Source of the DNA: an uncultured Pirellulales bacterium
Lineage (GTDB): Bacteria; Planctomycetota; Phycisphaerae; Sedimentisphaerales; Anaerobacaceae
DNA: 61,623 nt
Direction of reading: 5' to 3'
Assembly: GCA_964405375.1 (NCBI GenBank)
Contig: CAYONQ010000001.1
Coordinates: 1 to 61,623, forward strand
Part shown: one piece after another, positions 752-51,963 of the stretch
Layout of the letters: the number at the start of each line of letters is the position of its first letter
Numbering within the stretch: position 1 is the first letter of the stretch
Notes under the pieces: model-generated
Told to the model about the DNA's origin: nothing
What the model saw: only the letters and a program-made list of their open reading frames with translations
Database searches by the model: none
Program-made: the position numbers and the translations under genes

Positions 752-1281
752 TAGAAATAAGGTAAGAAAAGTAAAAATTTTTTGTTTTTTTGCAGGAGCT
801 AATTGCCTGCCGGGGGGGGGGCGATCTACAATATATCGGCGGTATCTAAGTTCAATTAGAGGAAACTCGCTTGCGAGACGACTGATTACGATACCCATCA
901 CCAGCGAATTATTCTGCTTATAGACAGTGGAGGCGGCGGGTTAAAAGGCGATTTTTAGGTTCAGCGAACTCAACAGAAATCGAGGTATGGTTATGGATAC
1001 AGGCCATTTTCAGGCGGACAGTGTAGAAAACAATATCGTGGGGAGTGCAGCATATCTGACAGCGTGGATTGATAAGCAGTACAAGGCGGAAGGTGAGCCG
1101 GCGATGCCGTCGTTTATCAACGGCGAGGCGGCAATATTTTATTGGGGACCGGTTGAGCCAACAGAACAATAAATAATTGACTATTTACTATTGACCCTTT
1201 ACTATTGGGGAAAAATAGGCGTTTAGAAACATTGTTACATTCCACAGTAAAGAGCAATTGGGTCTCTGGGTGTCTATTTCG

Positions 1282-11661: not shown

Positions 11662-12996
11662 ATGGTCAATTCAACGGTTAGCAGCAAGACAACAAGCTCA
11701 TCTCAGTCGGGCCCGGAACTGACCCGCGGCCGACGGTTAGGGAAGTATCGGCTTGAAAAGCGGCTCGGCATCGGCGGTATGTGCGAGGTCTGGAAGGCCA
11801 AGGACTGCGTGGAGGGGATATGGGTGGCCCTGAAGATACCTCAGGCGGACATTAACGGCGAGCGCGATAACCAGAGCTTATTCAGGGAGATTCGGCTGGT
11901 TGCGCAGCTTCGTCATCCCCACATAATGCCGGTCAAGAACGCGGACATCATTGATGACTATGCGGTGATGGCAACCGAACTGTCGGTCGGGACTTTAGCC
12001 GACCGCTGTAAACCTATGTCGGTGCGGCGAATCATATCCATTACCGCCCAGGTGCTCGACGGGCTGGCCTACGCACACCACAATCGGCTGGTACACTGCG
12101 ATGTTACGCCGGGTAATATATTTCTTTTTCCAAACGGCAGGGCTGCGCTGGGGGATTTCGGTATTGGTTTGCGGCTTAAAGGCCGGATGAAAACTATAGA
12201 CGAATACGGCACTGTCGGGTACGTGGCGCCCGAGCAGGCGTATGGCCGACCCACCTATTGCAGCGACTGTTTTGCCGTTGGGTTAATCCTTTACGAATAT
12301 CTGACGGGGGTCCTTTTGCGGTGGCCCTTTCGCTGGCCCGGCCGGGGCTACAAGCGCCTGTGCGAGCGGACAAATACGGCTATGGCAAAATTCCTGCAAA
12401 AGTCTTTGTTGGTTAGCCCCGCCCGGCGATTTGCCAATGCCGAACAGATGCGAATGGCGCTGCTTCAGGCAATACCCAGAAACCTTAGAGGTAAGCTGGC
12501 CTTGAAATCGGTGGGTAAAGAAAAGGACGACTGGCGCAAGGTGCGGCGTAAGGCCTTTATCAGGCGATACGGCAAGGTTTTTCCCACCATTTTCCGGTGT
12601 GTGGAATGTGGCGAGCCGATAGCCGAGAGTATGGCGGTCTGTCCGTGGTGCGGCAGCAGCCGGAACCGGTTCGACACTCACAGTGAATTCAGCTATATCT
12701 GCCCGCGCTGCCATAAGGGTGTGCTGGGTGAGTGGCGATACTGCCCGTGGTGCTACGGTGCGGGTTTTAAGTCGCCCAGTTCCGAGCGTTCAAAGGGTGT
12801 GCGTTATCACGACCGGTGCAAGTACTGCGACGGCAAATTGATGCGTTTTATGCGATACTGCCCGTGGTGCCGGCGGAAGGTGCGACAGAAGTGGACTGTA
12901 GCAATCTTTCCAGAAGTATGCGGTCGATGCGGCTGGCCGGTAGATTCCAGCTTCTGGAATTACTGCCCGTGGTGTAAACAGGGCTTGATTCAATAA
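11662..12996 (+). CDS. Ser/Thr protein kinase with four C-terminal zinc-ribbon (CxxC...CPWC) modules
   Basis: Kinase motifs include the glycine loop with VALKIP lysine, the HCDVTPGNIF catalytic loop, the DFG motif (LGDFG) and VAPE. The C-terminus carries VECGEP..VCPWCG, CPRCH..YCPWCY, CKYCD..YCPWCR and CGRCG..YCPWCK. Confidence 0.88.
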   Translation: MVNSTVSSKTTSSSQSGPELTRGRRLGKYRLEKRLGIGGMCEVWKAKDCVEGIWVALKIPQADINGERDNQSLFREIRLVAQLRHPHIMPVKNADIIDDYAVMATELSVGTLADRCKPMSVRRIISITAQVLDGLAYAHHNRLVHCDVTPGNIFLFPNGRAALGDFGIGLRLKGRMKTIDEYGTVGYVAPEQAYGRPTYCSDCFAVGLILYEYLTGVLLRWPFRWPGRGYKRLCERTNTAMAKFLQKSLLVSPARRFANAEQMRMALLQAIPRNLRGKLALKSVGKEKDDWRKVRRKAFIRRYGKVFPTIFRCVECGEPIAESMAVCPWCGSSRNRFDTHSEFSYICPRCHKGVLGEWRYCPWCYGAGFKSPSSERSKGVRYHDRCKYCDGKLMRFMRYCPWCRRKVRQKWTVAIFPEVCGRCGWPVDSSFWNYCPWCKQGLIQ

Positions 12997-13090
12997 TAAA
13001 CTCAAACTGACCGATGGCCAGTTTGAAAATGTAAAAATCAAAGTGCAAAACGCAAAATTGCGGAATGTATTGTCAAAAATAGAGTTACAT

Positions 13091-13119
13091 TTAACCCGCC
13101 CCTCGGAGGGGCGGGTTAA
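13091..13119 (+). terminator. Perfect 12-bp GC-rich hairpin (ttaacccgcccc / ggggcgggttaa) between the kinase and the phosphatase
   Basis: The stem arms are 13091-13102 and 13108-13119. No clear T-tract follows, so it may be an attenuating or processing hairpin rather than a full terminator. Confidence 0.5.
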
Positions 13120-13173
13120 ACATTTGCTACAAATCGGTTAGCTTGAGTAATAAAGGAAAGCGAAAAGTCATAA

Positions 13174-13956
13174 ATGATGAAAGACGCCGGCGGTAACCTA
13201 AAAGGACACTTTCCATTTTGCTGGGGTGCAGTTAGTGATACAGGCAAGGTGAGGAAGGAAAACGAGGATACGTTTCTGGTCGAGCCGGAATTGGGTCTGT
13301 TTCTGGTTTCAGACGGTATGGGGGGTGAGCGTGGAGGGGCGATTGCATCGAATATTGTGGCTGAAGACCTGCCCGTGATGATTGAGACCAGATTAGACAA
13401 ACTCAAATCACACAGCCCCCGGGCGATAAGAGCGCTTTTCAAAAAGACCATTATCGAACAAAGCAGACAAGTGCAGATGGAAGGGACAAGTGAGAGCGGC
13501 TACAAAGGGATGGGAGCAACGGTCGTTATGACACTGTTAAAAGACGGGCGGGCATACATCGCAAATCTGGGCGACAGCAGGATGTGTCGTTTTCGCAAAG
13601 GTAAGCTCGCGCAGCTTACGAAGGACCACTCGGTCGTATCCGAGCTTCTGCACGAAGGCAAGATTAGGCCGGAGGAAGCGGAAGGCCACGCCGCTGCGGG
13701 CCAAATCACGCACTACGTCGGTATGGAAGAAAAGGTCATCCCTTACGTACGGACATTTACTCTCAAAGAAAAAGACCGGCTGCTGCTGTGTACCGATGGG
13801 CTAACAGATATGGTAGATGACGCAGCCATTGCTGATATATTAGCAGGTGAGACAGAACCACAGGCGGCATCTGAAGCGCTTGTTGATGCGGCCAATGCTG
13901 CCGGCGGCTATGACAATGTTACGGCTATGGTTATCGATTGGCTTGGTCGTTCATAA
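13174..13956 (+). CDS. PP2C-family Ser/Thr protein phosphatase (Stp1-like)
   Basis: Motifs are EDTFLV, VSDGMGGERGG, LCTDGLTD and GGYDNVTAMVI. Confidence 0.9.
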   Translation: MMKDAGGNLKGHFPFCWGAVSDTGKVRKENEDTFLVEPELGLFLVSDGMGGERGGAIASNIVAEDLPVMIETRLDKLKSHSPRAIRALFKKTIIEQSRQVQMEGTSESGYKGMGATVVMTLLKDGRAYIANLGDSRMCRFRKGKLAQLTKDHSVVSELLHEGKIRPEEAEGHAAAGQITHYVGMEEKVIPYVRTFTLKEKDRLLLCTDGLTDMVDDAAIADILAGETEPQAASEALVDAANAAGGYDNVTAMVIDWLGRS

Positions 13957-14034
13957 TAACAGCCCAAAAAGCTGCCTCGGGAATTACCTCACCCCATAGA
14001 AATGTTTTCTCACCTACAAAGATTACCGGCAATT

Positions 14035-14043
14035 TGTTATAAT
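14035..14043 (+). promoter_or_regulatory. Possible extended -10 promoter element (TGtTATAAT) upstream of the radical SAM operon
   Basis: tgttataat lies at 14035-14043, the same 9-mer as in the folC promoter. No good -35 is present. Confidence 0.35.
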
Positions 14044-14114
14044 TGCAGGTGGAATAACACAACAGGGTACGAACATCTGTCTGGATTGCCTTTTCGCCGG
14101 ATGGGCCATAAAAG

Positions 14115-15098
14115 GTGAGGGTTAAGTTGAAAGTTCAGTGCGAATTATGTCCGAAAAGGTGTGTAATTAAACCGGGCCAAAGCGGTGAGTGCCGGGTGAG
14201 AATCAACATCGACGGGGTGCTGCGAACGGTGGTTTATGGATACCCGTGCTCAATCCATATCGACCCTGTGGAAAAAAAGCCACTTTTTCACTTCCTGCCG
14301 AGCAGCGGAATTCTTTCACTTGCTACTGTCGGGTGTAATCTTCACTGCAGGAACTGCCAGAACTGGGAGATATCGCAGGCCAATCCGGAAGACAGCCAGG
14401 CGGCATTCTGCCCGCCTGAAAGACTCGTGGCATTAGCCAAGTACTACAACTGCCCCTCGGTGGCGTATACCTATACCGACCCGATTGTCTATTATGAATA
14501 TACCTACGACACGGCGAAGCTGGCCCGGGATAAAGGGATACGCAATGTGCTTGTAACAGCCGGCTATATCAACACCGAGCCGTGGAAACGACTGCTGGAA
14601 TACGTGGACGCAGCGAACATTGATTTGAAAGGAATTACCGATGATTTTTACCGGCAGGTGTGCTTTGGAACATTAAAGCCGGTGCAGCAGGCCCTGATAG
14701 AAGCTGCGGCCAGCGGAATACTGCTTGAGGTTACGAACCTGATTATCCCGACGTTAAACGACAAACCCGAGGAGATACGGCAACTCGCCCGCTGGGTCAA
14801 GATGAATCTCGGCAGCGATATACCGCTGCACTTTTCGAGATTCTTTCCGCGTTACAAGATGCGGCATCTGCCGCAAACTTCGTCGAAGACATTAGATATG
14901 GCCCGTGAGATTGCGGTCAGCGAAGGGCTGCACTACGTTTACATAGGAAATATTCGAAGCAAAACCGGGCAGAACACGTATTGTCCGGGCTGCAAGGCGC
15001 TTCTCATTGAGCGAAGCGGCTATACTATTCTGCAGAACCGGCTCAAAGATGGGTTTTGTCCGGATTGCGGTAGAGAGATATACGGGGTCTGGAAATGA
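14115..15098 (+). CDS. AmmeMemoRadiSam system radical SAM enzyme (PflA-like activase family)
   Basis: The CX3CX2C radical SAM cluster is in GCNLHCRNCQNWEIS. The N-terminal CELCPKRCVIKPGQSGECRVR and C-terminal CPGC...CPDCG Cys pairs are typical of this family. It is immediately followed by Memo and AMMECR1 domains. Confidence 0.85.
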   Translation: MRVKLKVQCELCPKRCVIKPGQSGECRVRINIDGVLRTVVYGYPCSIHIDPVEKKPLFHFLPSSGILSLATVGCNLHCRNCQNWEISQANPEDSQAAFCPPERLVALAKYYNCPSVAYTYTDPIVYYEYTYDTAKLARDKGIRNVLVTAGYINTEPWKRLLEYVDAANIDLKGITDDFYRQVCFGTLKPVQQALIEAAASGILLEVTNLIIPTLNDKPEEIRQLARWVKMNLGSDIPLHFSRFFPRYKMRHLPQTSSKTLDMAREIAVSEGLHYVYIGNIRSKTGQNTYCPGCKALLIERSGYTILQNRLKDGFCPDCGREIYGVWK

Positions 15099-15277
15099 CA
15101 CGCAGAAAATTTATTGAGAAATTGATAAAGGCGGGGTCGGTAATTATTGTGGGCGGCTGGCATCTGACGAAAAAGGCCTCGCCGCGGAGATTTGTGCGGG
15201 CCCTTCGAATTAAAAAATATCCCGGCTCTCTAAAGCCCCTGCGTAATATCCATAAACAAGGCAAGTGGAGCGGCTGA
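15095..15277 (+). CDS. 60-aa basic mini-protein with a twin-arginine-like N-terminus (MTRRKFIEKLIKAGSVIIVGG)
   Basis: The ATG overlaps the rSAM stop (ATGA at 15095-15098), and its stop (15275-15277) lies 1 nt before the next ATG (15279). It fills the gap exactly. Codon usage looks genic. Confidence 0.55.
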   Translation: MTRRKFIEKLIKAGSVIIVGGWHLTKKASPRRFVRALRIKKYPGSLKPLRNIHKQGKWSG

Positions 15278-15278
15278 T

Positions 15279-16883
15279 ATGAACAAGCGAACCAAGAAAA
15301 TTACCCTGAGAAAATCCATTCTGGGTTTTGTGATTTTATTTCTGGTCATTCTCGCTGTTGTCTTCTGGGACGTGCGTATCCCGGAACCCATGGTCCCGGT
15401 GGAGGAGGGCCCAGCGCCAAAAAAAGCAGAGCCGGTAAAGGTGGCGAAGGCCGTTCTGCACTCGCCGCTTGCCGGCAAATGGTATCCCGCCGATGGACAG
15501 GCACTTAGCAGACAGATTGAGGGGTTTTTTCAAAAAGCGGATGTCGAGCCGAGAGCGGATGTAATTGCGTTGATTCTGCCGCACGCGGGGTATCAGTTCT
15601 CCGGCCAGACGGCGGTCTGCGGGCTGGCGACCACCGATAAAGAATATAAACGCATCGTCATCATCGGCCCAAGTCACTATGTGCCTATGGAAGATATGCT
15701 GAGCGTGCCGAGGGTAACACATTACGAAACGCCGTTAGGAGAGATACCTCTGGATGTGGAGTTTATAGAGAAGCTCCTGAAACACCCGGTATTTCAGAAC
15801 TCGCCGCAGACACACGAGTACGAGCACAGCGTTCAGATAGAGCTGCCGCTGCTACAATACCGGCAAAAGGATTTTAAGCTCGTGCCGATTGTGGCCGGGG
15901 CCTGCTCATCAGAAACAATTGAGAAGGCCGCCGCCGTTTTGAAAGGTCTGGTTGACGATGGGACAGTTGTAATCGCAAGCTCGGATTTTGTGCACTACGG
16001 CCGCAACTATGGTTACGTGCCGTTTACGGAAAATATACCTGAACAGATAAAGAAACTCGATATGGGGGCGTACGAACACATTGCCAGGTTAGACATTGGG
16101 GGCTTTCTGGAATATAAGCAGAGAACCGGCGCAACTATATGCGGCTATATTCCGCTTGCGATATTGCTTTCGATGTTAGACAAATCGGCCGAGGCGAAGC
16201 TGATAAAATACACAACCTCCGGCGAGCTGACGGGGGATTTCAGCAATTCGGTGAGCTACCTTTCGGTGTCCTTTTCAGGGAGGTGGGGAAACGTGGCGGG
16301 AATCGAGCCGCAGACGACTAACCCCGGATTGACCGAAGAAGATAAGGAGCAACTCCTGAATTTAGCGAGGCAATCTCTGGTTTACTTCCTGGAGAACCGC
16401 CGCGTCCCGCAGCTATCAGAACTAAACGTTACGGCCAACGAGGCGATGAAATCTCCACGTGCGGTGTTTGTAACGCTCAAGAAGAATTCTCATCTGAGGG
16501 GTTGTATAGGTGATATTTTTCCACAACGGCCTTTATGCAGGTCGGTAGCTATCAATGCGATTAACGCTGGTGTTAATGACAGGCGTTTTCTGCCGGTAAC
16601 AAAACAAGAGTGTAACGATATTACAATCGAGATATCCGCACTGACGGCACCGCAGCCCATCGGGTCGGCGGATGAGATAAGAATCGGCATAGACGGTGTC
16701 GTGTTAAATAAGGACGGCCGGTCGGCTGTGTTTCTGCCCCAAGTTGCGCCCGAGCAGGGCTGGGACGTTAATCAAATGCTCACACACCTGTCGCTGAAGG
16801 CGGGTTTGAGCGGCGATGCCTGGAAGGAAGGTGCGAGCTTTCTGGTGTTCCAGGCGGTTATTTTTGGTGAAGAAGAAAGATGA
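15279..16883 (+). CDS. Fusion of AmmeMemoRadiSam system protein B (Memo-like) and protein A (AMMECR1-like), with an N-terminal transmembrane anchor
   Basis: The N-terminus KKITLRKSILGFVILFLVILAVVFW is a predicted TM helix. Memo motifs are LPHAGYQFSG and SSDFVHYG. The AMMECR1 motif LRGCIGDIFPQ and SAVFLPQV lie in the C-terminal roughly 190 aa. Confidence 0.85.
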   Translation: MNKRTKKITLRKSILGFVILFLVILAVVFWDVRIPEPMVPVEEGPAPKKAEPVKVAKAVLHSPLAGKWYPADGQALSRQIEGFFQKADVEPRADVIALILPHAGYQFSGQTAVCGLATTDKEYKRIVIIGPSHYVPMEDMLSVPRVTHYETPLGEIPLDVEFIEKLLKHPVFQNSPQTHEYEHSVQIELPLLQYRQKDFKLVPIVAGACSSETIEKAAAVLKGLVDDGTVVIASSDFVHYGRNYGYVPFTENIPEQIKKLDMGAYEHIARLDIGGFLEYKQRTGATICGYIPLAILLSMLDKSAEAKLIKYTTSGELTGDFSNSVSYLSVSFSGRWGNVAGIEPQTTNPGLTEEDKEQLLNLARQSLVYFLENRRVPQLSELNVTANEAMKSPRAVFVTLKKNSHLRGCIGDIFPQRPLCRSVAINAINAGVNDRRFLPVTKQECNDITIEISALTAPQPIGSADEIRIGIDGVVLNKDGRSAVFLPQVAPEQGWDVNQMLTHLSLKAGLSGDAWKEGASFLVFQAVIFGEEER

Positions 16884-19800
16884 GATTTGCCCGCCCCGTT
16901 AGAAGTAAGTTGCAAGGAGAGGATACTGCCGCTGCCGTGCGGATTTCTAACGGGGCCCGCCGGTTTCTGATATTCAGTTATGGTTTGTTTACTATTGCCG
17001 CCCAGGCGCTTCTGTTTCGCGAGTTTATCACCACCTTCGAGGGCAACGATATAAGCGTTGGGATATTCTTCGGCTCGTGGTTTTTGTGGGTTGGTTTGGG
17101 GGCGATGCTGGTTTACAAAGCAGAGGCGGTGGCTAAGAAGCTGGTTCGCAACATGGAATTTCTGTTTCTGGCCTATCTGCCGGCTTTTATATTAGAGTTA
17201 ATACTGATTATCCAGGCCCGTGAGCTTGCAGGCATCGAGCCGTATGCACTGTTGAGCGTACGGGCCATTCTGCTTTTATCAATAGTGGTTAGCGCACCGG
17301 TCAGTGTCATTACGGGGATGCTGTTTCCCACCGCCTGCCGATGGGTCCAGCAGGAGAGGGAACTGCCTGTTTCGTATGTGTATATCACCGAGGCGGCGGG
17401 AGGCTTCACCGGCGGACTCGGTGTAACCGTTCTTCTGGGATTTGGCGTAAGTTCGGCAACGGTTTTTCTTATACTTGCCTTTGTCGTCTGTCTATCGGTA
17501 TCTGTCATTCAATTTGCCAAGGCGAGAGAGCGGCGCTCGGACGGTTTACCGTCTCGACTTTCTATCGTTCGATTGTCCGTATATTTGCTGCCTCTTTTTG
17601 TGGTGCTTTGCTTAGCCGGCGGGGCTGATAGGCCGTTGATGCGTTATGTGCGAGTTGTAAAATGGACAAAGCTGCTTCCTAAAGACGCTCTGGTTGGGTC
17701 ATTCCAGACAGCCCAGGCCGAGTATCTCTACGGGGTCTATCACGGTCAATGGATAGCCGTTCGCGAAGGCAGTGTTACCGAATCGCTGCCCGATGAAGAA
17801 ACCGCCGGTCGAATAGCCGCTACGGCTCTGTGCCAGAATCACGACGCTAAAAGAATCCTGGTGGTGGGTTCGGGATTGGGGCTGTGCGGCGAATTTCTGC
17901 GCCTGAGACAGATTGAGCAGGTGACCTGGGCACACTGCGACAGTGAATACGTCCAGAAGGTCAACAGATTCATACCGGCGGAACTTAAAATCAACGATGA
18001 GCGGTTATCTTATCTTGCCGGTGATGTTCGCTCTCTGCTGGGCCGCCGCCCTGCAAAAGACAGCGAAAGAAAACCCTATGACATAGTAATCATCAATCTG
18101 CCCGATGCGACCAGCTCGGTCCTTAACCGTTACTTCACGCTTGAATTTTATCAGCAGGTCAAAGAACGCTTAAGTCCTGACGGCGTGCTGGGAGTTCGTA
18201 TAGCAGGCGGTGAAAACATTATGGGCACCGAGCTAATCAATCTCGGCGCCTCTACAAAGCTGACGCTGGAGAAGGTCTTCTCGCAGCTTGTTTTAACGCC
18301 CGGCGAGGATACCTGGTTCATCGCATCCGATTCAGAAAATCTTACCGGCGACCCCGGCACTTTGCGGGACCGCTTTGCAACGATAGAAGGCGGAAGCGAC
18401 ATTCTTGCCGCCGAGGCGCTGCTTAGTATCTATCTGCCGGGGCGTGCGGCCACAGCCGTTGAGAACTATTCTGCTGCAGATTTACCGCAGGCACTTCTGA
18501 TTAACCGCGATTCGAGACCGCTGACGCATCTATACAGCTTATTACTCGCAGCGAAACAATCAGGGGCGCCGATTACAAAACTCGTTAAACATCTGGCTTT
18601 GGCGGGGCCGTCGGCCTTTCTTATCCCCGTTCTGATTTTTGTGGTCTTGCGGGTTATCTACATATTAAAAACAGCTCAGCGAGACATAAGGTCCAGCTTC
18701 GACAGTGCATTTCTGGTTTTCTCAGCGGGGTGGGTGGCAATCGGCGTTGTGATTTCTCTGATGTTTTTGTATCAGACCCGTTTCGGCTCGCTGTACCTGC
18801 ACATCGGGGTTATTTCATCTTTGTTTATGGCGGGCCTGACCGCCGGCGCAGTTTTAACTTCGTATCTCGTGAAGCGCAGGGGTAAGATGCTGCTGTTTAA
18901 AGTAATCCTGCTACATATACTAATCCTAATCGTAATCGCTTTTTGGCCGGCTGAACTGTGGACACATCCGGCGTTTGCGATTGCATTTGTTCTCTGCGGG
19001 CTGTGTTCGGGCAGTTACTTTCCGCTGGCTGCCGGCCAGCTTGCCGATTCTGCGTTTGAGCCGGGCCAGGCCGGCAGCAAGCTCGAAACCGCCGACCACC
19101 TCGGTGCATCAGCAGGAGGTGTGCTGACGAGCATTGCGCTTGTGCCTGTGCTGGGGACGAGGGCGACCTTATTCGTATTTGTTCTTCTCATTCTGGCCAA
19201 CGTGCCGGCTGCGGCACTAAAGATATACAGGCCAAAGCTGGTTTTTTCTTCGGATGCAGGTGCTTTTAGCTTACGTCGGCTCGGCTATATCTTATTCGGC
19301 GTGGGTCTGGCCGTTATGCTGTGCTCGAACCTGCTTATCTATGCCGGCAGAGGGCTGAGGCCGTCACTGTCGCAGTATGCGGCCCAGGCACTGGCCGGCG
19401 AATCGCACATCGAGCAGGCATCAGCGGTTGTCGGTGACAATGCCAAAAAGGTCAGCTATTTCAAGGTCTATGAGCCCGCTGATACGGCAGCGGAAAAGGC
19501 AACCAAAGAAATAGATACCAAACCGCCGGAGCCGGGAGCCCAAAAACTAACCGGATACATCTTCAGCTCCGAGGAGCTGGCGGACGAGGTTCGCGGATTC
19601 GGCGGTAAGATGAATCTTGCCATTTATGTGGATACTGCCGGCAGACTGATTAACTTCCACATAATACGGTCAAATGAAACGCCTTCATACCTTGAGATGC
19701 TCGGCCAATGGCGTGGGCTTCTCAATGGTCGTGAGCTTTTCCGGTCCCGGCCGTTCGCCGACGTTCACGCTGTAACCGGTGCCACCGTAAGCTCTATGGC

Positions 19801-20890
19801 CGTTCTTTCGGCACTGGAATCATCCGGCAATAGATTCGCAATGCAGATTCTCGGCAGGACTCTTGAAGCCGGGCCAAAAGAACAGCCCCATCTGGCCAAT
19901 TACCTGCCGGATACGCAAGGGGCATATCTGATTAGCGTCTTCGCACTTACACTTATTGTAATCTACAGAGGCGGATTCCGGAGCAGACTGGCGGTACTTG
20001 CGTTTAATCTTGTTGTCGGCGGTATTATCTTAAACGCCCAGTATTCGAGCGAACAGATAGCGACCGTACTGTCTTTGCAAACCCCCGCTATGGGATTTTC
20101 GGGGGCATTTCTGCTGGCCGTAGGAATACCAATACTCGTTATATTCTTCGGCAACATCTATTGCGGCTACATCTGTCCATTCGGAGCTGCGCAGGAGCTG
20201 CTCGGCTACGTCGTTGGCGGAAGATTCAAACAGGCGATATCAACAGAAGATATGCGGAGGGCAAGATTCGTCAAATATGCGGTTCTCTTTGTTTTGATAA
20301 TCGTGTTCTTTATTTCAAGAAATCGCACGACTCTGGCAACGGACCCGCTCATAAGGATTTTCAATCTTCGATTTTCAATCTCCAATTTTCAATCAGCAAT
20401 ACTGCTGATAGCAGCGGCAGCTTTGATTGGCTCGATTTTCTATACTCGCTTCTGGTGCCGATATTTGTGTCCCGCAGGGGCCTTTCTGTCACTGTTTAAC
20501 AAGGTGGTGATACTAAAGCGGTACCTGCCGATAAAGAGATTTGGCAGATGTGAATTCGGCCTTACCGGGCAAGACCAGATGGACTGCTTATACTGCGATA
20601 GATGCCGTTACGAGGTAAAAACAACTAAAGAACCCCTGCTGCAGCCCCGTGCGCCGGTGAAGCTGATGAGCCGGTACTTTATGGTAGGTGTACTTATAAT
20701 AGCAGTAGTTGCGTCGACGGTTTCTGTAAGCAGATTTTTACAGGTTACTGCCGGTGGCCTTGAGCGGACCGCCGTTTCGGTGGCTTCCGGCGGTCAGCCG
20801 CGAGACGTCGATTTACAGCGTATCCGCGAGATGATTCGGCAGGGGAAACTGGCCGACAAAGAAGCTGAGTTCTACGAAAAGACTGATTAG
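16880..20890 (+). CDS. 1336-aa polytopic membrane megaprotein: fused MFS-like/spermidine-synthase-like module, FMN-binding domain, and NosR/NapH-like CX3CP plus 4Fe-4S module
   Basis: There are about 7 TM helices, then a SpeE-like fold (ILVVGSGLGLCGE, YDIVIINLPDA, LSPDGVLGV), then about 8 more TM helices. An FMN_bind-like segment ends in VHAVTGATVSSMAV. TM helices carry CGYICPFGAAQE and WCRYLCPAGAFLS. A Cys cluster reads CEFG...CLYCDRCRY. The ATG overlaps the upstream stop (ATGA). Confidence 0.8.
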   Translation: MRFARPVRSKLQGEDTAAAVRISNGARRFLIFSYGLFTIAAQALLFREFITTFEGNDISVGIFFGSWFLWVGLGAMLVYKAEAVAKKLVRNMEFLFLAYLPAFILELILIIQARELAGIEPYALLSVRAILLLSIVVSAPVSVITGMLFPTACRWVQQERELPVSYVYITEAAGGFTGGLGVTVLLGFGVSSATVFLILAFVVCLSVSVIQFAKARERRSDGLPSRLSIVRLSVYLLPLFVVLCLAGGADRPLMRYVRVVKWTKLLPKDALVGSFQTAQAEYLYGVYHGQWIAVREGSVTESLPDEETAGRIAATALCQNHDAKRILVVGSGLGLCGEFLRLRQIEQVTWAHCDSEYVQKVNRFIPAELKINDERLSYLAGDVRSLLGRRPAKDSERKPYDIVIINLPDATSSVLNRYFTLEFYQQVKERLSPDGVLGVRIAGGENIMGTELINLGASTKLTLEKVFSQLVLTPGEDTWFIASDSENLTGDPGTLRDRFATIEGGSDILAAEALLSIYLPGRAATAVENYSAADLPQALLINRDSRPLTHLYSLLLAAKQSGAPITKLVKHLALAGPSAFLIPVLIFVVLRVIYILKTAQRDIRSSFDSAFLVFSAGWVAIGVVISLMFLYQTRFGSLYLHIGVISSLFMAGLTAGAVLTSYLVKRRGKMLLFKVILLHILILIVIAFWPAELWTHPAFAIAFVLCGLCSGSYFPLAAGQLADSAFEPGQAGSKLETADHLGASAGGVLTSIALVPVLGTRATLFVFVLLILANVPAAALKIYRPKLVFSSDAGAFSLRRLGYILFGVGLAVMLCSNLLIYAGRGLRPSLSQYAAQALAGESHIEQASAVVGDNAKKVSYFKVYEPADTAAEKATKEIDTKPPEPGAQKLTGYIFSSEELADEVRGFGGKMNLAIYVDTAGRLINFHIIRSNETPSYLEMLGQWRGLLNGRELFRSRPFADVHAVTGATVSSMAVLSALESSGNRFAMQILGRTLEAGPKEQPHLANYLPDTQGAYLISVFALTLIVIYRGGFRSRLAVLAFNLVVGGIILNAQYSSEQIATVLSLQTPAMGFSGAFLLAVGIPILVIFFGNIYCGYICPFGAAQELLGYVVGGRFKQAISTEDMRRARFVKYAVLFVLIIVFFISRNRTTLATDPLIRIFNLRFSISNFQSAILLIAAAALIGSIFYTRFWCRYLCPAGAFLSLFNKVVILKRYLPIKRFGRCEFGLTGQDQMDCLYCDRCRYEVKTTKEPLLQPRAPVKLMSRYFMVGVLIIAVVASTVSVSRFLQVTAGGLERTAVSVASGGQPRDVDLQRIREMIRQGKLADKEAEFYEKTD
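20356..20397 (+). repeat. In-frame 3 x 14-bp tandem repeat inside the megaprotein CDS (gattttcaatcttc gattttcaatctcc aattttcaatcagc)
   Basis: This is direct reading of the sequence. It encodes IFNLRFSISNFQS between predicted TM segments. Confidence 0.85.
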
Positions 20891-20907
20891 TTTGTAGATA
20901 TGATAAA

Positions 20908-20936
20908 AGCGTGGCGGTCGTTATGACCGCCACGCT
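20908..20936. terminator. Bidirectional hairpin terminator between convergent genes (12-bp perfect stem agcgtggcggtc / gaccgccacgct)
   Basis: The arms are 20908-20919 and 20925-20936 with a 5-nt loop. It lies between the + gene ending at 20890 and the - gene ending at 20972. Confidence 0.7.
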
Positions 20937-20971
20937 CGTAATGCCTCTTCAAAGCCAGATTAAATCGGTGA

Positions 20972-23833
20972 TTAATCTTCATCCAATATCACAACAAGGG
21001 CCCTGTTAGGCAGGCCAAGTTTGTAATTGGCATCGGGGTCGATGGTGATAATCACCTGCTCTGCATTGTCAGGGTCACCATCGTCGATAGGCGTAACGTC
21101 AATGGTCGCAGTAGAATCACCGCCGGCAATCGTTACCGAGCCGCTCAGCGTTGAGTAATCAGTGCCGGCTGTTGCATCTCCACTTACGCTATAATCCACG
21201 AGCAGCGATGATGCGGTATCACCTGTGCGATATACTTTAAATTCGCCGGCGACTTCGTTCACTTCGTAAGCACGGGAATTAGAGGCGGCGACGAATACAA
21301 TAGTAGTGTCATCTCCATTGGGGTCGGTATTATTAAGATACTCCTCTATGTTGGTATAGCCATCGTTGTCGGCGTCCTGGCTGTGGTCCAAGATGTTGGG
21401 GTCGAGAATGCTGCTGTATTGCTCTTCCCAGTAGTTCGGCATACCGTCGCTGTCGTTGTCAGCCAGCGCTGTAAGCGAGTAAAGTGTTGGCCAGCTGCCG
21501 ACCTCATCCTCATCGTCAATGATGGTTCCTCTTCCAATTACAACGTCGCCTATAATACGCACATCAACGGAGTCTACGGCAGGCAAACAGGCACCGGCGT
21601 CGGCAATGACACGTGCATAGGCCGTGTTCGGGTCATCGGTAGCAACTGGGACAACATCATATGGCTCCGACTGTTTGTAAGCCGCTACCAGTGGTTCTGT
21701 AAAGTAGGCGTAGTCAAATCTCCAGAGAACCCACGGGTCTGCCGGATTGTACTCATCGAGCGAATTATCCTCAATATATGATTTGGCGCCAATGCACTGT
21801 TCCTTGTAAATGTGGATGGTGTTGTCGCCGGGTCTGTCTTTGTAATAGTTTCCGACGAAATTGCTTAATGTAATAGTGGCATCATCAGAGTTGTAACCCG
21901 GGGTGGAGTCGAGCCAGCTGTAGATTACATTGTTTCGCCAATCAAAGATCCATCCTATCTTGTCGGCGCCATTGGTATTTTCCGGTCGCGGAGACCGCGT
22001 CTTATGATGTGCATAAAGGTTGTGGTGATAGGTAACTTCTTTGCCATAGTCACCGACGATTAAGGAAGCATAACCGTGGTATACGTCGCCATGAGTCGAA
22101 TGGTTCAGACTCTCGCTAATTATACACCACTGGACGGTAACGTCATCGGAGTGAGTAACTGAAAATGTTTCATCCACCGACCAGCTCGCCGAACAGTGGT
22201 CGAACATAATCCTATTGGCGTGGTAGGCCGACATACTATCCGGCTCAAAAGCCACGTTGTCGCCGGGGCGAGCTCGTAGATAGCGGACAATCACATCATC
22301 AACATAAGGAACTCTAAAACCATAATCCTTAAGGGTTATTCCATCACCCGGAGCGGTCTGACCTGCAATGGTGCAGTAAGAATTCTCAACATTCAAGGTA
22401 TCCTTCAGCGTTATGGTGCCTGAAACGTTAAATACAACGGTTCTGGGCCCCGTGGCATCTGTTGCGGCACGCAAACTGCCGGCAACGGGGGCCTCCATAG
22501 AGTTGTAGTCCTGAAGATTTGTGACAAAAAGTACCGTCCCTCCGCGGCCGCCCTTGGCGCCCTTGCCGGGACCTTCAGCAGTCGGGAATGCCGGGGTGTC
22601 TGTATTAAATGTCCATATCGGGCCTTTGCAGGGAATATTGGCGTCATCGAGCTCGTCTATGCGCCAGTAATAAACAGTGTCCCGCTCAAGTCCGCCGGGG
22701 TCAAAGCTGTTGACATCAAAGTTGCCCTTATAGACGTTGGGGTCGCCCGGCCCGGTCGCGACCGGCCAGGAGTTATTGGCATCACTAACATCGTTCAAAT
22801 TGGTGCCGAAGTACACATCGTGCGAGTTTGCATCATCCGCAGGCGCCCATTTAAGAACAACATTGCTGTCCATGCAAAATGCTTCATCAGCAGGATAGGG
22901 ATTGCTGGCCCATCCGCCAGTACCGGCAATATCCGCTATATCGGCCGCCGACAGTGCGCTATTGTAGATGCGCACATCGTCCATTTTGCCGTCAAACCAG
23001 GCAACCATATTCTTTTTAACGCCTATTCTTACGGGCTCATCATTAAGTATGCCACCGGCGGTAGTTTGTGCGGTGATTCCCGCCGGAAAACCGTCTATAT
23101 AGAAGTTAACGGTCTTCAACGTGGTCAGGGTAACAGCTACATGTTCCCAGTCTCCGGCACTCACAGGAGCAGCTGATTCATAATACACAAAATTTGCACC
23201 TGTACTGGTTTGATGTACCAACCTCAACTTACCGCCTGCGATCGTCATGAATACATAATTTCCCGGATAGTTATCTGCCGCCGTACCGCTGGGCTGTTTG
23301 CCCACAATAGTAGCGGCGGCGGCGGTGCTATCCAGCTTCACCCAGGCGGCAATAGTAATGTTGCTGTCGACGTCGAGACTGTCATCGGTATCCGGAACAC
23401 TAACGTAATCACCGACGCCATCGAAATCAAGTGCGTAGATTCCCTCTGCGCCGGCGACCCAGTTGGGGTCACCGTTGAGCGTGCCGTCGTTGTCGTTGCC
23501 GCTCGAATCGTAGGCGATACTGCCGGAACCCTCTTCAAACCTCCACCGGCCGACAAGACTTGGCCGGGTTAACCAGCGTTTTGCCCATAAAGTATAATCA
23601 TCAAAATCAACGTTGTTATTATCCTCATCAAAGTTGGCCCCGTTGCACCAGTTGTTCGTCGCATTGCAATCGTTCAGCCACTCGGCAGCGAATGCGTCGA
23701 GGTCCTTCCAGTCGATGGAATCGTCCTTAACCAAGTCATAATCGACCGCTGAAACCAGACCCGACACACCAAGTATCACCGCCAGAAGCACCGGCACAAG
23801 GTATGAAAAAAGGTAAGTATTATTATTCTTCAT
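20972..23833 (-). CDS. Secreted multidomain protein: dockerin-like N-terminus, LamG (concanavalin A-like) domain, pectate-lyase-like beta-helix, thrombospondin type-3-like Ca-binding repeats, Calx-beta domain
   Basis: A signal anchor is present. Domain evidence is LamG (GRWRFEEGSGSIAYDSSGNDNDGTL), the PL1-like start TAEGPGKGAKGGRGGTVLFVTNLQD, DNDSDGMPNYWE and DADNDGYTNIEEY repeats, and Calx-beta (VDYSVSGDATAGTDYSTLSGSVTI). Confidence 0.75.
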   Translation of the reverse strand: MKNNNTYLFSYLVPVLLAVILGVSGLVSAVDYDLVKDDSIDWKDLDAFAAEWLNDCNATNNWCNGANFDEDNNNVDFDDYTLWAKRWLTRPSLVGRWRFEEGSGSIAYDSSGNDNDGTLNGDPNWVAGAEGIYALDFDGVGDYVSVPDTDDSLDVDSNITIAAWVKLDSTAAAATIVGKQPSGTAADNYPGNYVFMTIAGGKLRLVHQTSTGANFVYYESAAPVSAGDWEHVAVTLTTLKTVNFYIDGFPAGITAQTTAGGILNDEPVRIGVKKNMVAWFDGKMDDVRIYNSALSAADIADIAGTGGWASNPYPADEAFCMDSNVVLKWAPADDANSHDVYFGTNLNDVSDANNSWPVATGPGDPNVYKGNFDVNSFDPGGLERDTVYYWRIDELDDANIPCKGPIWTFNTDTPAFPTAEGPGKGAKGGRGGTVLFVTNLQDYNSMEAPVAGSLRAATDATGPRTVVFNVSGTITLKDTLNVENSYCTIAGQTAPGDGITLKDYGFRVPYVDDVIVRYLRARPGDNVAFEPDSMSAYHANRIMFDHCSASWSVDETFSVTHSDDVTVQWCIISESLNHSTHGDVYHGYASLIVGDYGKEVTYHHNLYAHHKTRSPRPENTNGADKIGWIFDWRNNVIYSWLDSTPGYNSDDATITLSNFVGNYYKDRPGDNTIHIYKEQCIGAKSYIEDNSLDEYNPADPWVLWRFDYAYFTEPLVAAYKQSEPYDVVPVATDDPNTAYARVIADAGACLPAVDSVDVRIIGDVVIGRGTIIDDEDEVGSWPTLYSLTALADNDSDGMPNYWEEQYSSILDPNILDHSQDADNDGYTNIEEYLNNTDPNGDDTTIVFVAASNSRAYEVNEVAGEFKVYRTGDTASSLLVDYSVSGDATAGTDYSTLSGSVTIAGGDSTATIDVTPIDDGDPDNAEQVIITIDPDANYKLGLPNRALVVILDED

Positions 23834-24107: not shown

Positions 24108-25166
24108 TTAAACGGTGATTTCGATGATTTTAACCCTGCTCAAATCCGCTGTTCCCAGCCCTAATTTCTCGGCATAGCTAAGCGTCGGAGCAATCGTTTG
24201 CCGGTCAAAACCATCATCATTATCATCCAGGATTTGCGCACAATAAGCGTCTGTAGCAACCATATCGCCGGATATGATAATTTTGTTGATATCCTTTATG
24301 ACCGAGCCAGGTTTAAAACTGGGGCCTCGGACAGTTAAAATCTTTCGGGCATCGACTATGGTCAGTTCGGGGCGCATTGCATCGGCGAATTCAGCGACGG
24401 TTTTCATAAAAAAGTCTTTGCCCTGCTCGCCGAATTTTTTGAGCTGATTGTGGGAATCCATCCGCTGGGAACAGCAAACGGCACCATAGAAGTTTTTCAA
24501 GGCACAGGTCATAAACGCATTGCCGTGGGTCTTAAGCATCGGCTGATTGATTATGACCGATGCAGCCAGCAGATGCGGATTGACCTTAATATCAGGGTTT
24601 TTCTGCCACCGGTCGCAATAGACAGAGACATACTGCTTTTCATCAGCAGGGTGGGTGCATATTACCTCAACACCCGCCGATTCGGCGATTTCAAAGACCT
24701 TATTTACCTTAAAGACGTATGCCGGGTCGTTATAGCGGTTCAGGACATAGGGGTCGGAAGAGTCGCAAATGGTTACTTTGCCGGCACCGCTTTCTTTCAG
24801 ATGTCGAGCAATTGAAACCAAAAAATGCGGGTCGGAACCGGTTGGGTAAACTCGATGTGAGCCGTAATTGGGCTTGATGAACGCACTATCACCGGCAGCT
24901 ACAATTTTTCCGAGTCCGCCGATGGCATCCAGCCCCTTTGCCAGCATTTTTTCGGTGTCTTTGCCTTCAACAGCAACCAATAAGGGTTTGCCGTCCTCGA
25001 CAAAGAGATTTGATTTTCCCAGCCGGGGCTGTAATTTCTTCTCTTCGCCAGCCCGGATTGAAGACGGCGCAGCTAAATAGGCCGAGATGGCGCTTACAGT
25101 TTTCAGGAATTGCCGGCGCGAAAACCGCAAACGCCACCACCTACACTTATCGCTGGTGCCGTTCAT
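24108..25166 (-). CDS. DUF362 domain protein with a twin-arginine signal
   Basis: SRRQFLKTVSAISAYLAAP is a Tat-type signal. The core AFIKPNYGS...KVTICDSS is DUF362-like. Confidence 0.7.
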   Translation of the reverse strand: MNGTSDKCRWWRLRFSRRQFLKTVSAISAYLAAPSSIRAGEEKKLQPRLGKSNLFVEDGKPLLVAVEGKDTEKMLAKGLDAIGGLGKIVAAGDSAFIKPNYGSHRVYPTGSDPHFLVSIARHLKESGAGKVTICDSSDPYVLNRYNDPAYVFKVNKVFEIAESAGVEVICTHPADEKQYVSVYCDRWQKNPDIKVNPHLLAASVIINQPMLKTHGNAFMTCALKNFYGAVCCSQRMDSHNQLKKFGEQGKDFFMKTVAEFADAMRPELTIVDARKILTVRGPSFKPGSVIKDINKIIISGDMVATDAYCAQILDDNDDGFDRQTIAPTLSYAEKLGLGTADLSRVKIIEITV

Positions 25167-29752: not shown

Positions 29753-29768
29753 AGTGTATCTCGAACTA
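29734..29768 (+). repeat. Heptad array (cgtatct cgtgaag cgtgaag tgtatct cgaacta) containing the dehydrogenase stop codon
   Basis: Five in-phase 7-bp units use the same words as 6564-6598. The TGA at 29750-29752 lies inside a cgtgaag unit. Confidence 0.8.
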
Positions 29769-29816
29769 AATCCGGGGTATAAATGTTATCCCTACAGTAA
29801 GCAGGGGGAATGGAAA

Positions 29817-51834: not shown

Positions 51835-51963
51835 CGCATCGTGCGCCCCTTTCGAAAACCACGCCAATCCACACCCGTTTTTTGTCCTTTCCGAGATTAG
51901 ATGAAATATGGTATAATTGCGCAACATACGCAGAGAAACGAAATAATTTGGGAGGCCGCAATT

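Follow-up and report, generated by a model that had tools for sequence, protein, structure and literature searches.

A conserved four-gene variant of the AmmeMemoRadiSam system with a putative split Tat signal and a probable membrane-bound redox partner

The DNA analysed here (the window: 61,623 nucleotides (nt) of an uncultured Pirellulales bacterium, contig CAYONQ010000001.1) carries, between positions 14115 and 20890, four forward-strand genes that encode, in this order, a radical S-adenosylmethionine (SAM) enzyme, a mini-protein of 60 amino acids (aa), a Memo-AMMECR1 fusion and a very large membrane protein, hereafter the megaprotein. Our preferred reading, to which we give a probability of about 0.55, is that these genes form a single conserved module and that this module is an AmmeMemoRadiSam variant which faces the periplasm and is thus extracytoplasmic, in which the mini-protein would escort the radical SAM enzyme and the megaprotein would deliver electrons and perhaps SAM.

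Memo and AMMECR1 are conserved from archaea to humans; cell migration and cancer have been linked with MEMO1, and an X-linked syndrome with AMMECR1. To our knowledge, the biochemical function of both proteins is unsolved, and no substrate is known for the bacterial AmmeMemoRadiSam trio. The canonical system is regarded as soluble.

Organization and conservation of the block

The four genes, all on the forward strand, are the following:

14115-15098 (+), radical SAM gene, 327 aa when called by the open reading frame (ORF) finder from GTG 14115
15095-15277 (+), mini-ORF, 60 aa
15279-16883 (+), Memo-AMMECR1 fusion gene, 534 aa
16880-20890 (+), megaprotein gene, 1336 aa

The raw sequence bears out the ORFs and junctions that had been described in the original prediction, namely an ATGA overlap at 15095-15098 between the radical SAM gene and the mini-ORF, a TGA-t-ATG at 15275-15281 (1-nt gap) before the Memo-AMMECR1 gene, and a second ATGA overlap at 16880-16883 before the megaprotein gene. 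The same overlap junctions are found in a related contig (L001). Since neither the promoter scan of the operon region, which did no better than shuffled sequences, nor the terminator scan, which was uninformative, gave a usable signal, it is the gene overlaps that argue for co-transcription. An Rfam scan of 13700-21300 returned a single match, to ALIL, at chance level (E 0.55), and no riboswitch was detected upstream.

Identification as an AmmeMemoRadiSam system stands as regards the three families, all of which match above their curated cut-offs, but two genes, not three, account for the expected trio, Memo and AMMECR1 being fused. The radical SAM enzyme reaches 383.8 bits against TIGR04337 (cut-off 220) and also matches Pfam Radical_SAM; the fusion scores 231.7 bits against the Memo-like model TIGR04336 (cut-off 26; aa 64-332) and 162.9 bits against the AMMECR1-like model TIGR04335 (cut-off 99; aa 358-529), and matches PF01875 and PF01871 as well. 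The motifs cited in the original prediction, CNLHCRNCQNW (aa 74-84 of the radical SAM enzyme), HAGYQFSG and LRGCIGD, are all present. The genes for the AmmeMemoRadiSam components adjoin and overlap each other in the window, as they do in at least 15 other loci.

The association of these genes with the mini-ORF and the megaprotein is clearly not peculiar to the window, as the block proved colinear across several phyla. An exhaustive search of 50%-identity representatives with megaprotein residues 137-1336 as query returned, at E<1e-30, 953 clusters, of which over 100 are full length (~1300 aa), with identities down to 30%; close relatives amount to 680 at 64-88% identity in Phycisphaerae. Further loci (L004-L083) were obtained by scanning one genome per species with a diverse megaprotein alignment, compared with the window proteins by tblastn, and their ORFs read directly. 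A colinear order of the genes for the radical SAM enzyme, Memo-AMMECR1 and the full-length megaprotein is kept in Phycisphaerae, in Pirellulales (L005), in Thermodesulfobacteriota (L008), in Nitrospirales (L022), in Myxococcales (L027), in an unclassified metagenome-assembled genome (MAG; L013) and in a deltaproteobacterial MAG (L015). The four-gene colinear block, mini-ORF included, is found in Planctomycetota (L001-L005, L011, L012) as well as in L008, L013, L015 and L022. Adjacency is conserved in at least six phylum-level lineages, while the genes that flank the block differ between loci (window, L001 and L002 compared).

In two contigs (L002 and L003), a cassette of toxin-antitoxin and HNH genes of approximately 2.7 kb separates the Memo-AMMECR1 gene from the megaprotein gene; strict coupling is therefore not obligatory. 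The cassette (L002:7457-9740, and L003) lies on the opposite strand of an otherwise syntenic Planctomycetes locus and comprises an HTH_3 antitoxin-like gene, a Gp49/HigB-like toxin gene, an HNH_3/AP2 protein gene and three small ORFs, with a phage-integrase fragment further upstream (2643-2912).

A putative Tat signal, in cis or in trans

The radical SAM enzyme and the mini-protein display the following features:

14334-14357 (+), radical SAM enzyme aa 74-81, CX3CX2C motif CNLHCRNC of the [4Fe-4S] cluster, read from the sequence and invariant in alignment A5
14982-15068 (+), C-terminal CxxC...CxxC of the radical SAM enzyme (CPGC...CPDC), cysteines invariant or nearly so in A5
15098-15115 (+), N-terminus of the mini-protein, M-T-R-R-K-F-I, of the twin-arginine translocation (Tat) type, invariant or nearly so in 110 clusters

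Translation of the radical SAM gene probably starts at TTG 14127, behind the Shine-Dalgarno-like GGTGAGGG, rather than at the less likely GTG 14115; the resulting length of 323 aa is that called in L001 and L003. The enzyme is devoid of a signal peptide, and its N-terminus is short compared with the family model, the TIGR04337 match beginning at model position 11. Its C-terminal pair of CxxC motifs may form a zinc ribbon or an auxiliary-cluster site. The next-best NCBIfam matches are glycyl-radical activases (TIGR04041, TIGR02493 and TIGR02494; 41-51 bits, far below the cut-offs), no SPASM or RRE domain was matched in the Pfam and NCBIfam scans, and a PDB sequence search returned nothing at E 1e-3.

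Relatives of this enzyme usually carry a Tat signal of their own. The TIGR04337 enzyme of Acidobacteriaceae is extended at its N-terminus by 50 residues, composed of RRSFL, a hydrophobic region and A-W-A/GP, after which the core scores 386.8 bits from residue 51. Pfam TAT_signal matches this protein at E 2e-4, and 117 of its 120 closest clusters, several of which bear the NCBI name 'AmmeMemoRadiSam system radical SAM enzyme', keep RR[SA]FL, the hydrophobic region and the A-W-A cleavage-type site. We also read the N-termini in a metagenome sample gathered with a diverse radical SAM alignment (80 loci, 44-55% identity to the enzyme of L021): most carry a Tat motif (43 loci), a few a plain hydrophobic anchor, and a minority the canonical signal-less start 'M..EAxFYEKL...C.LCP'. 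Enzymes of the window type begin a few residues ahead of the first cysteine motif and are accompanied by a mini-ORF with a Tat motif, located at or just after the radical SAM stop codon. This arrangement in trans was detected in Planctomycetota and in L008, L013, L015, L021, L022, L027, L095, L098, L108, L111, L118 and L156, and the truncated enzyme with mini-ORF occurs in at least seven phylum-level lineages.

The distribution of the Tat-motif mini-ORF downstream of the radical SAM gene varies with the state of the enzyme:

Enzyme truncated, no signal: mini-ORF in 19/21 loci
Tat signal in cis: 1/44, and that one looks spurious
Hydrophobic anchor: 0/6
Full length, no signal: 0/10

The mini-ORF is thus present in 19/21 loci with a truncated enzyme against 1/60 of all others, these being raw locus counts that ignore kinship, made with our own regular-expression motif rules on loci whose sequence continues for 250 nt or more beyond the radical SAM gene.

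The mini-ORF is a real gene, judging from its homologous clusters of fixed length and from its bias towards third codon positions. Indeed, a profile of three copies retrieved 490 protein clusters, the length was exactly 60 aa in 110 of the 120 clusters listed, nucleotide differences between copies cluster at third codon positions (e.g. 13/8/31 and 14/10/32), and the two other reading frames are rich in stops. Invariant or nearly invariant positions are M1, T2, R3, R4, K5, F6, W23, P30, R31, F33, A36, Y42-P43-G44, L49, W58, S59 and the C-terminal G60. Between the Tat-type start and a very basic, conserved C-terminal half lies a short hydrophobic region rich in Gly and Ser; Pfam and NCBIfam scans gave no family match for the window copy. 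We also considered a frameshifted N-terminus of Memo-AMMECR1 as the origin of the mini-ORF, against which argue the fixed 60 aa in 110 clusters and the fusion's own anchor.

Three further loci offer intermediates. The last residues of the mini-protein are '...KEAMFWRRL' in L098, L118 and L156 and correspond to the N-terminal segment that is canonical for the TIGR04337 family; joining this 'EAMFW' segment to the radical SAM core moved the start of the TIGR04337 match from model position 11-12 to 2, with a gain of 6.4 bits (L098) and 6.7 bits (L118). The mini-protein is accordingly best read, as far as sequence comparison goes, as the detached N-terminal part (Tat signal and first segment) of a Tat-exported radical SAM enzyme, relocated downstream of the core gene. 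In the lineage of the window, the C-terminal half of the mini-protein has diverged (YPG...WSG). Since this C-terminus is without a TIGR04337 match, its homology to the detached segment is argued from position, architecture and the L098-type intermediates.

The same small protein might instead be a precursor peptide, a possibility that we consider quite improbable. The radical SAM enzyme would then be cytoplasmic and would modify the mini-protein at Tyr42-Pro-Gly or at the C-terminal Trp-x-Gly, before Tat export of the product and its use by a periplasmic Memo-AMMECR1 with electrons from the megaprotein. A small conserved peptide directly after a radical SAM gene, with invariant Y42-P-G and W58/G60 and with the Tat signal on the peptide itself, would suit this role, SAM and reductant are available in the cytoplasm, and a related radical SAM clade was reported in peptide-processing systems (PMC7159879). 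However, a substrate would be needed whatever the state of the enzyme, whereas the mini-ORF is absent from 49/50 loci whose enzyme itself bears a Tat signal or an anchor, and present in 19/21 truncated cases. Moreover, the C-terminus of the mini-protein in L098, L118 and L156 corresponds to the segment that the enzyme is missing, the Tat signals in cis imply export of the enzyme itself in most relatives, and neither a recognition domain for ribosomally synthesized and post-translationally modified peptides (RiPP) nor a protease or exporter was found in the block by Pfam and NCBIfam scans. Export of the window's radical SAM enzyme together with its mini-protein is the outcome that we favour on these sequence patterns, with moderate confidence.

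A fused and export-anchored Memo-AMMECR1 protein

The fusion protein contains the PHAGY, GPSH, DFVHYG, TICG and LRGCIG motifs, and is organized as follows:

15318-15374 (+), aa 14-32, signal-anchor (hydropathy 2.9) behind a KR-rich N-terminus
15468-16268 (+), aa 64-330, Memo domain (TIGR04336, Pfam)
16359-16865 (+), aa 361-529, AMMECR1 domain (TIGR04335, Pfam)

As the KR-rich N-terminus is followed by a strongly hydrophobic helix, an N-in/C-out orientation is predicted. This is not an isolated case, a signal peptide, an anchor or a lipobox being located just before the Memo domain in 14/14 linked Memo-AMMECR1 proteins examined. Canonical cleavable signal peptides are found in L008 (...LSFA/QE), L019 (...ASNA/AP) and L023, and lipoboxes in L027, L098 and L118. 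The original idea of a dedicated membrane or envelope redox machine, as opposed to a soluble cytoplasmic trio, is supported by these export signals, carried by all linked Memo-AMMECR1 proteins and accompanied by Tat signals on or beside the radical SAM enzyme, together with the cross-phylum synteny.

A composite membrane protein beside the trio

From N- to C-terminus, the megaprotein consists of seven transmembrane (TM) helices, a SpeE-like domain, eight TM helices, a domain binding flavin mononucleotide (FMN), and a NapH/NosR-like Fe-S module:

16949-17620 (+), aa 24-247, first TM bundle, seven helices (AlphaFold2, AF2), N-terminus predicted cytoplasmic (positive-inside)
17690-18604 (+), aa 271-575, SpeE-like (aminopropyltransferase-fold) domain (Foldseek, phmmer)
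18611-19348 (+), aa 578-823, second TM bundle, eight helices (AF2), with a weak match to MFS_1 (PF07690, 41.4 bits, cut-off 33.4, aa 591-746)
19595-19819 (+), aa 906-980, FMN_bind domain (PF04205, 32.3 bits, RnfG subfamily match), extracytoplasmic by homology
19922-20518 (+), membrane Fe-S module of the NapH/NosR type (PF12801, two stretches, 58.3 bits), its two CX3CP motifs being C1095/C1099 and C1193/C1197
20549-20605 (+), C-terminal cysteine cluster C1224-x11-C1236-x2-C1239-x2-C1242, invariant in A2, in a KR-rich loop predicted to be cytoplasmic
20675-20887 (+), last TM helix (aa 1266-1284) and conserved tail ...PRDVDLQRIREMIRQGKLADKEAEFYEKTD, tail consensus GxPRxVDxxRxxxxIxxGxLSxxEAxxY

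The Pfam matches, all above their gathering scores, are Spermine_synth (aa 312-437), MFS_1, FMN_bind and two stretches of Fer4_5 (aa 1076-1213). The flavinylation motif, defined as [S/T]GA[S/T] (PMC8238504), appears as TGAT at aa 966-969, with T969 (19784-19786) invariant in 29 diverse homologues. Eight cysteines are likewise invariant, those of the two CX3CP motifs and of C-x11-C-x2-C-x2-C. The protein had been described as NosR-like, which holds for its C-terminal third (NosR/NapH-like) but not for the remainder: similarity to NosR, NapH and RnfG is partial and sub-threshold; for the NosR equivalog NF046105, whose cut-off is 1000, the score is 51.4 bits and the match spans no more than model positions 488-619, and no nos genes lie near the megaprotein gene in the window.

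An AF2 model of aa 1-840, built from a diverse 40-sequence alignment, is confident, with a predicted local distance difference test (pLDDT) of 87.5 and a predicted template-modelling score (pTM) of 0.89. The model of aa 1-1200, from a shallow 56-sequence alignment, has a pLDDT of 54.8 and a pTM of 0.40 and is usable only for helix counts. In a Foldseek search, the SpeE-like domain matched polyamine aminopropyltransferases best (1uir, E 5e-10; TM-score on the target 0.69-0.71 over ~300 columns) and, more weakly, the SpeE-fold methyltransferase METTL13 (E 1e-4), and the TM bundles gave no informative PDB match. The domain keeps the ribose/adenine-binding acidic residues D354 and D382, plus D401, in the phmmer alignment; the GGG(D/E)G loop is replaced by GSGLG, which has no acidic residue, and the first Asp of D-x-x-D-P by Asn406. 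Spermidine-synthase equivalogs score about 50 bits against cut-offs of 250-540 (the best, 50.6 against 472). From its residues, the domain is therefore not a canonical spermidine synthase, and it probably binds an adenosyl ligand.

Because an even number of helices (eight) separates it from FMN_bind and the positive-inside counts are consistent with an N-in start, the SpeE-like domain would lie on the periplasmic side, like FMN_bind. By analogy with NapH and NosR, the CX3CP motifs and the cysteine cluster are predicted to face the cytoplasm. The final tail is predicted to be periplasmic.

The last residues of the megaprotein (...KEAEFYEKTD) resemble the N-terminal segment of canonical TIGR04337 enzymes that is missing from the window's radical SAM enzyme. 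When this tail was joined to the enzyme, the TIGR04337 match extended to model position 2, with a gain of 5.2 bits. Planctomycetota, L008 and L021 have the tail; L013, L015, L022, L027 and L019 lack it. The last TM helix and tail (20732-20887) also resemble the TM-plus-linker N-termini of the membrane-anchored radical SAM enzymes of L026 (Auribacterota) and L067 (UBP3), where the radical SAM gene follows a NapH-like gene. This likeness suggests that a gene boundary may have moved, leaving the first residues of the radical SAM enzyme on the megaprotein.

The two halves of the megaprotein also occur as separate genes, such split forms being seen in Acidobacteriota, Omnitrophota, Auribacterota and Myxococcales. 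A protein of ~790 aa with the MFS-SpeE part only is encoded beside the radical SAM and Memo-AMMECR1 genes in Acidobacteriaceae (L018, L023, L084) and Omnitrophota (L031), and L021 brings together a FMN_bind-Fer4_5 gene, an MFS-SpeE gene and a radical SAM gene. In Auribacterota (L026) and UBP3 (L067), a DsbD_2-FMN_bind-Fer4_5 fusion precedes the radical SAM gene; in the Acidobacterial operon, the order is Fer4_5-polyferredoxin (the Fer4_5 gene being that of L084), DUF6599, DUF362, radical SAM, Memo-AMMECR1. In Thiohalocapsa (L019), Memo-AMMECR1 is found downstream of the megaprotein. DsbD_2 modules, CcdA-like thiol-disulfide transporters, were observed beside the radical SAM gene in L031 (13599-14222, reverse strand) and fused to the FMN_bind-NapH module in L026 (1744-3435, forward strand), which hints that thiol reducing power is also exported for the system.

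These arrangements bear on whether the megaprotein belongs to the system at all. It could be an independent protein, in which a membrane polyamine aminopropyltransferase is combined with either a regulator or an electron carrier of the NosR type, and a mere neighbour of the AmmeMemoRadiSam genes. Relatives are annotated at source as 'spermidine synthase' or '4Fe-4S binding protein', homologues in L007 (Lentisphaerae) and L016 (Magnetococcus) are without AmmeMemo neighbours, and the insertion in L002 parts the megaprotein gene from the others. We nevertheless regard such independence as extremely improbable: adjacency persists across phyla while the flanks change, separately encoded halves each still adjoin AmmeMemo genes, the spermidine-synthase and NosR equivalog cut-offs are missed widely, two acidic positions typical of aminopropyltransferases are replaced, and MFS-SpeE matches adjoin the radical SAM gene in 28/53 loci with a Tat signal in cis and in 15/22 truncated loci, against 0/7 clearly canonical ones. 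That the block is one functional module is, in our view, very likely.

A second alternative concerns the side of the membrane. The whole assembly could sit on the cytoplasmic face, with the hydrophobic N-termini and the twin arginines (RR) acting only as tethers and the megaprotein as a scaffold exchanging electrons with the quinone pool. This would agree with SAM-dependent chemistry being known in the cytoplasm only, with the uncleaved-looking anchor of the window's Memo-AMMECR1, which shows no clear signal peptide, with the plain radical SAM anchors without RR in some loci, and with the borderline scores of the mini-proteins against Tat hidden Markov models (HMMs). It is at odds with the cleavable signal peptides and lipoboxes described above for six Memo-AMMECR1 proteins (L008, L019, L023, L027, L098 and L118), with the RRSFL, hydrophobic region and AxA-type site of Acidobacterial radical SAM enzymes, and with the N-in/C-out orientation predicted from KR-rich N-termini. 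In addition, ApbE-flavinylated FMN_bind domains are extracytosolic in all characterised systems (PMC8238504), and DsbD_2 partners move reducing power outward. An assembly confined to the cytoplasmic face hence appears decidedly improbable, and an extracytoplasmic location of Memo-AMMECR1 and of the FMN domain likely.

Proposed mechanism and points against it

In the periplasm-facing module that we propose, the radical SAM enzyme would fold and gain its Fe-S clusters in the cytoplasm; the mini-protein would bind the folded core through its conserved C-terminal half, carry it through Tat ('hitch-hiking') and, after export, may tether it at the membrane. Memo-AMMECR1 would reach the same compartment via Sec. 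Within the megaprotein, electrons from a cytoplasmic donor or from the quinol pool would pass via the NapH-like Fe-S centres to the covalent periplasmic FMN, which could serve as a tethered flavodoxin substitute and reduce the cluster of the radical SAM enzyme, for which the C-terminal EAEFY tail may be a docking site. Outward electron delivery fits, because the DsbD_2, NapH-like and polyferredoxin partners found in other phyla all move reducing power outward. The radical chemistry of the trio might be directed at Memo-AMMECR1 itself or at an envelope substrate, with a lipid or a polymer as candidates.

Two sources of SAM can be considered. SAM could be co-exported bound to the radical SAM enzyme, which would suffice if a protein partner were activated in a single-turnover reaction of the PflA kind. 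Alternatively, the 15-TM/SpeE-like half of the megaprotein would bind and deliver it; that the SpeE-fold half supplies SAM seems to us unlikely.

Several points weigh against this scheme. Foremost, the SAM source is its weakest link: we know of no SAM route to the periplasm, nor of any exported or extracytoplasmic radical SAM enzyme. Neither an ApbE gene nor Tat genes were found among the window ORFs. The Tat character of the mini-protein is borderline by profile, TIGR01409 (cut-off 16.7) giving 18.6 for the family member P0196, which passes, and 16.2, 15.1 and 15.0 for L012, L022 and L015, respectively; the window copy has no TIGR01409 match and no significant Pfam TAT_signal match. We tried the C-terminus of the window mini-protein as the TIGR04337 N-terminus, and the score did not rise in a chimera with the radical SAM enzyme. 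In six lineages, the radical SAM enzyme has a plain hydrophobic anchor without RR, which is hard to reconcile with its export since such anchors would imply Sec insertion of an Fe-S enzyme. The sidedness of the megaprotein is inferred from helix counts, the full-length model being too poor to show it. The locus counts ignore kinship, as said, and the two megaprotein homologues that lie apart from AmmeMemo genes belong here as well.

Two Acidobacterial-type loci with Memo-AMMECR1 and MFS-SpeE neighbours (L105:5700-6060 and L151:5600-6060) have a radical SAM enzyme apparently without a Tat signal, which also runs counter to the scheme. Their close relatives L133, L137 and L144 have the signal, so that signal loss, an alternative start or an assembly error are all possible.

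A broader version of this reading would posit a widespread clade of Tat-exported, periplasmic AmmeMemoRadiSam radical SAM enzymes, with the Tat signal split off as a 45-65-aa protein acting in trans in several phyla, the Sedimentisphaerales-like lineage of the window among them, and with a membrane protein that provides low-potential electrons via Fe-S centres and covalent FMN, and SAM via its 15-TM/SpeE-fold half. This version is tentative, and we would place it somewhat short of even odds.

Genomic surroundings

Housekeeping genes among the neighbours (SMC, Mur ligase, trp genes, glycogen genes) and the names borne by close homologues indicate ordinary chromosomal DNA of a planctomycete of the Sedimentisphaerales/Phycisphaerae type. 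Features that were noted outside the four genes are:

1258-2895 (+), FlgI (flagellar P-ring)-like region and HEAT repeats in one protein, an unusual pairing
11662-13956 (+), Ser/Thr protein kinase (with C-terminal double zinc ribbons) and PP2C phosphatase, same strand as the operon, 158-nt gap upstream of it
20972-23833 (-), 953-aa secreted protein with Laminin_G_3, weak pectate-lyase and Calx-beta domains
24108-25166 (-), DUF362 protein that bears a clear twin-arginine signal (SRRQFLKTVSAISAYLAAPSSIRA), encoded 3 kb beyond the operon
29742-31988 (+), 748-aa ORF with no Pfam match at E 1e-3, in a glycosyltransferase/TPR region, overlapping the end of a UDP-glucose/GDP-mannose dehydrogenase-like gene
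51901-52827 (+), 308-aa ORF with no Pfam match at E 1e-4

The gene of the 953-aa secreted protein converges on the 3′ end of the operon, with a gap of 81 nt, and therefore marks the end of the transcription unit. On the upstream side, a Pkinase gene also precedes the Acidobacterial cluster of L084 (4535-6283); coincidence and a regulatory link are both possible. As for the DUF362 gene, the system is directly flanked in the Acidobacterial loci L018, L023 and L084 by genes for DUF362 with a Tat signal, together with DUF6599. We considered the window's DUF362 gene as part of the module and set it aside, as it is not beside the block in L001 or L002; its link to the module is possible and unproven.

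Significance and comparison with known systems

For the AmmeMemoRadiSam trio, the variant adds concrete constraints that can be tested: the periplasmic face of the membrane as the proposed compartment, a covalent FMN fed by NapH-like Fe-S centres as the probable electron source, a membrane partner predicted to bind a nucleoside, and the mini-protein and the tail of the megaprotein as candidate docking elements. Should export of the radical SAM enzyme hold true, a first extracytoplasmic case would overturn the working assumption of a radical SAM chemistry restricted to the cytoplasm, a new use of Tat would be at hand in which the signal peptide became a separate gene by fission of the passenger, and a route of SAM supply to the periplasm would be implied. 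The partner families are large (953 megaprotein clusters, and a Tat motif on most of the 80 sampled radical SAM enzymes), so the system is not a one-genome curiosity. From the sequences compared, we see a substantial chance that it represents categorically new biology, namely exported radical SAM chemistry with a split Tat signal.

Our literature search retrieved no functional study of AmmeMemoRadiSam, a name that came up in passing mentions only, and nothing on periplasmic or extracytoplasmic radical SAM enzymes, on AMMECR1 together with spermidine synthase or NosR, or on membrane spermidine synthases. The abstract of a 2019 JBC (Journal of Biological Chemistry) article by Burroughs et al. 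on 'Memo-AMMECR1 systems' is said to report further Memo gene contexts, towards nucleotide-base and isoprenoid modification. Burroughs et al. 2019 is cited in an eLife paper for 'recently-described Memo-Ammecr1 systems', and the 2019 article may already have noted part of the neighbourhood seen in the window. What we take as new is an AmmeMemoRadiSam variant with an export-signalled Memo-AMMECR1 and a Tat signal for the radical SAM enzyme in cis or, putatively, in trans, of which no description was found in the searchable literature.

Compared with canonical AmmeMemoRadiSam systems, the window has three family models above cut-off, adjacent genes, and the CX3CX2C, Memo and AMMECR1 signature motifs. 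It differs by a fused, export-anchored Memo-AMMECR1 and by a radical SAM enzyme without its first ~10 model positions, and it adds two conserved partners, the Tat-motif mini-protein and the 1336-aa membrane protein.

The fusion of FMN_bind with PF12801, termed 'NapH-like', is the commonest architecture of a recognised and mostly uncharacterised class of transmembrane electron-transfer proteins (Meheust et al. 2021, PMC8238504). The megaprotein agrees with the operational definition of this class, which asks for a PF12801 membrane Fe-S protein and an FMN-binding domain within one protein or one gene cluster; its FMN_bind domain with [S/T]GA[S/T] is N-terminal to PF12801 with two CX3CP motifs. 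It departs from these systems by its fused 840-aa 15-TM/SpeE-like module and by its partner, a radical SAM trio in place of a respiratory reductase or oxidase. That flavinylation survey (PMC8238504) makes no mention of Memo, AMMECR1, radical SAM, spermidine or MFS. With SpeE and METTL13, the megaprotein domain shares the fold over ~300 columns, including the N-terminal beta domain; its position between seven and eight TM helices, its predicted periplasmic location, its GSGLG loop and Asn406 set it apart.

The radical SAM enzyme is closest, after its own family, to PflA-family activases, suggesting a protein-directed activase stoichiometric in SAM; the difference is that no glycyl radical enzyme is encoded in the window locus. 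PqqA/PqqE, MftA/MftC and QhpC/QhpD also pair a small conserved peptide with invariant aromatics and a radical SAM gene, but here the peptide is missing when the enzyme has its own export signal, and the enzyme is without a SPASM or RRE match.

Lastly, the mini-protein can be likened to short proteins with a Tat signal, for example TIGR02811 ('formate dehydrogenase region TAT target'), and its presumed role to the export of hitch-hikers by Tat. Known carriers include the hydrogenase small subunit, which takes the large subunit along, and DmsA, which takes DmsB. The likeness lies in a signal-less, cofactor-containing partner translationally coupled to a protein with an RR motif, and it fits because the signals in cis and in trans have complementary distributions. 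In the present system, the carrier would consist of little beyond a signal peptide and a docking segment of ~30 aa, derived by fission from the N-terminus of its own passenger, and that passenger would be a radical SAM enzyme.

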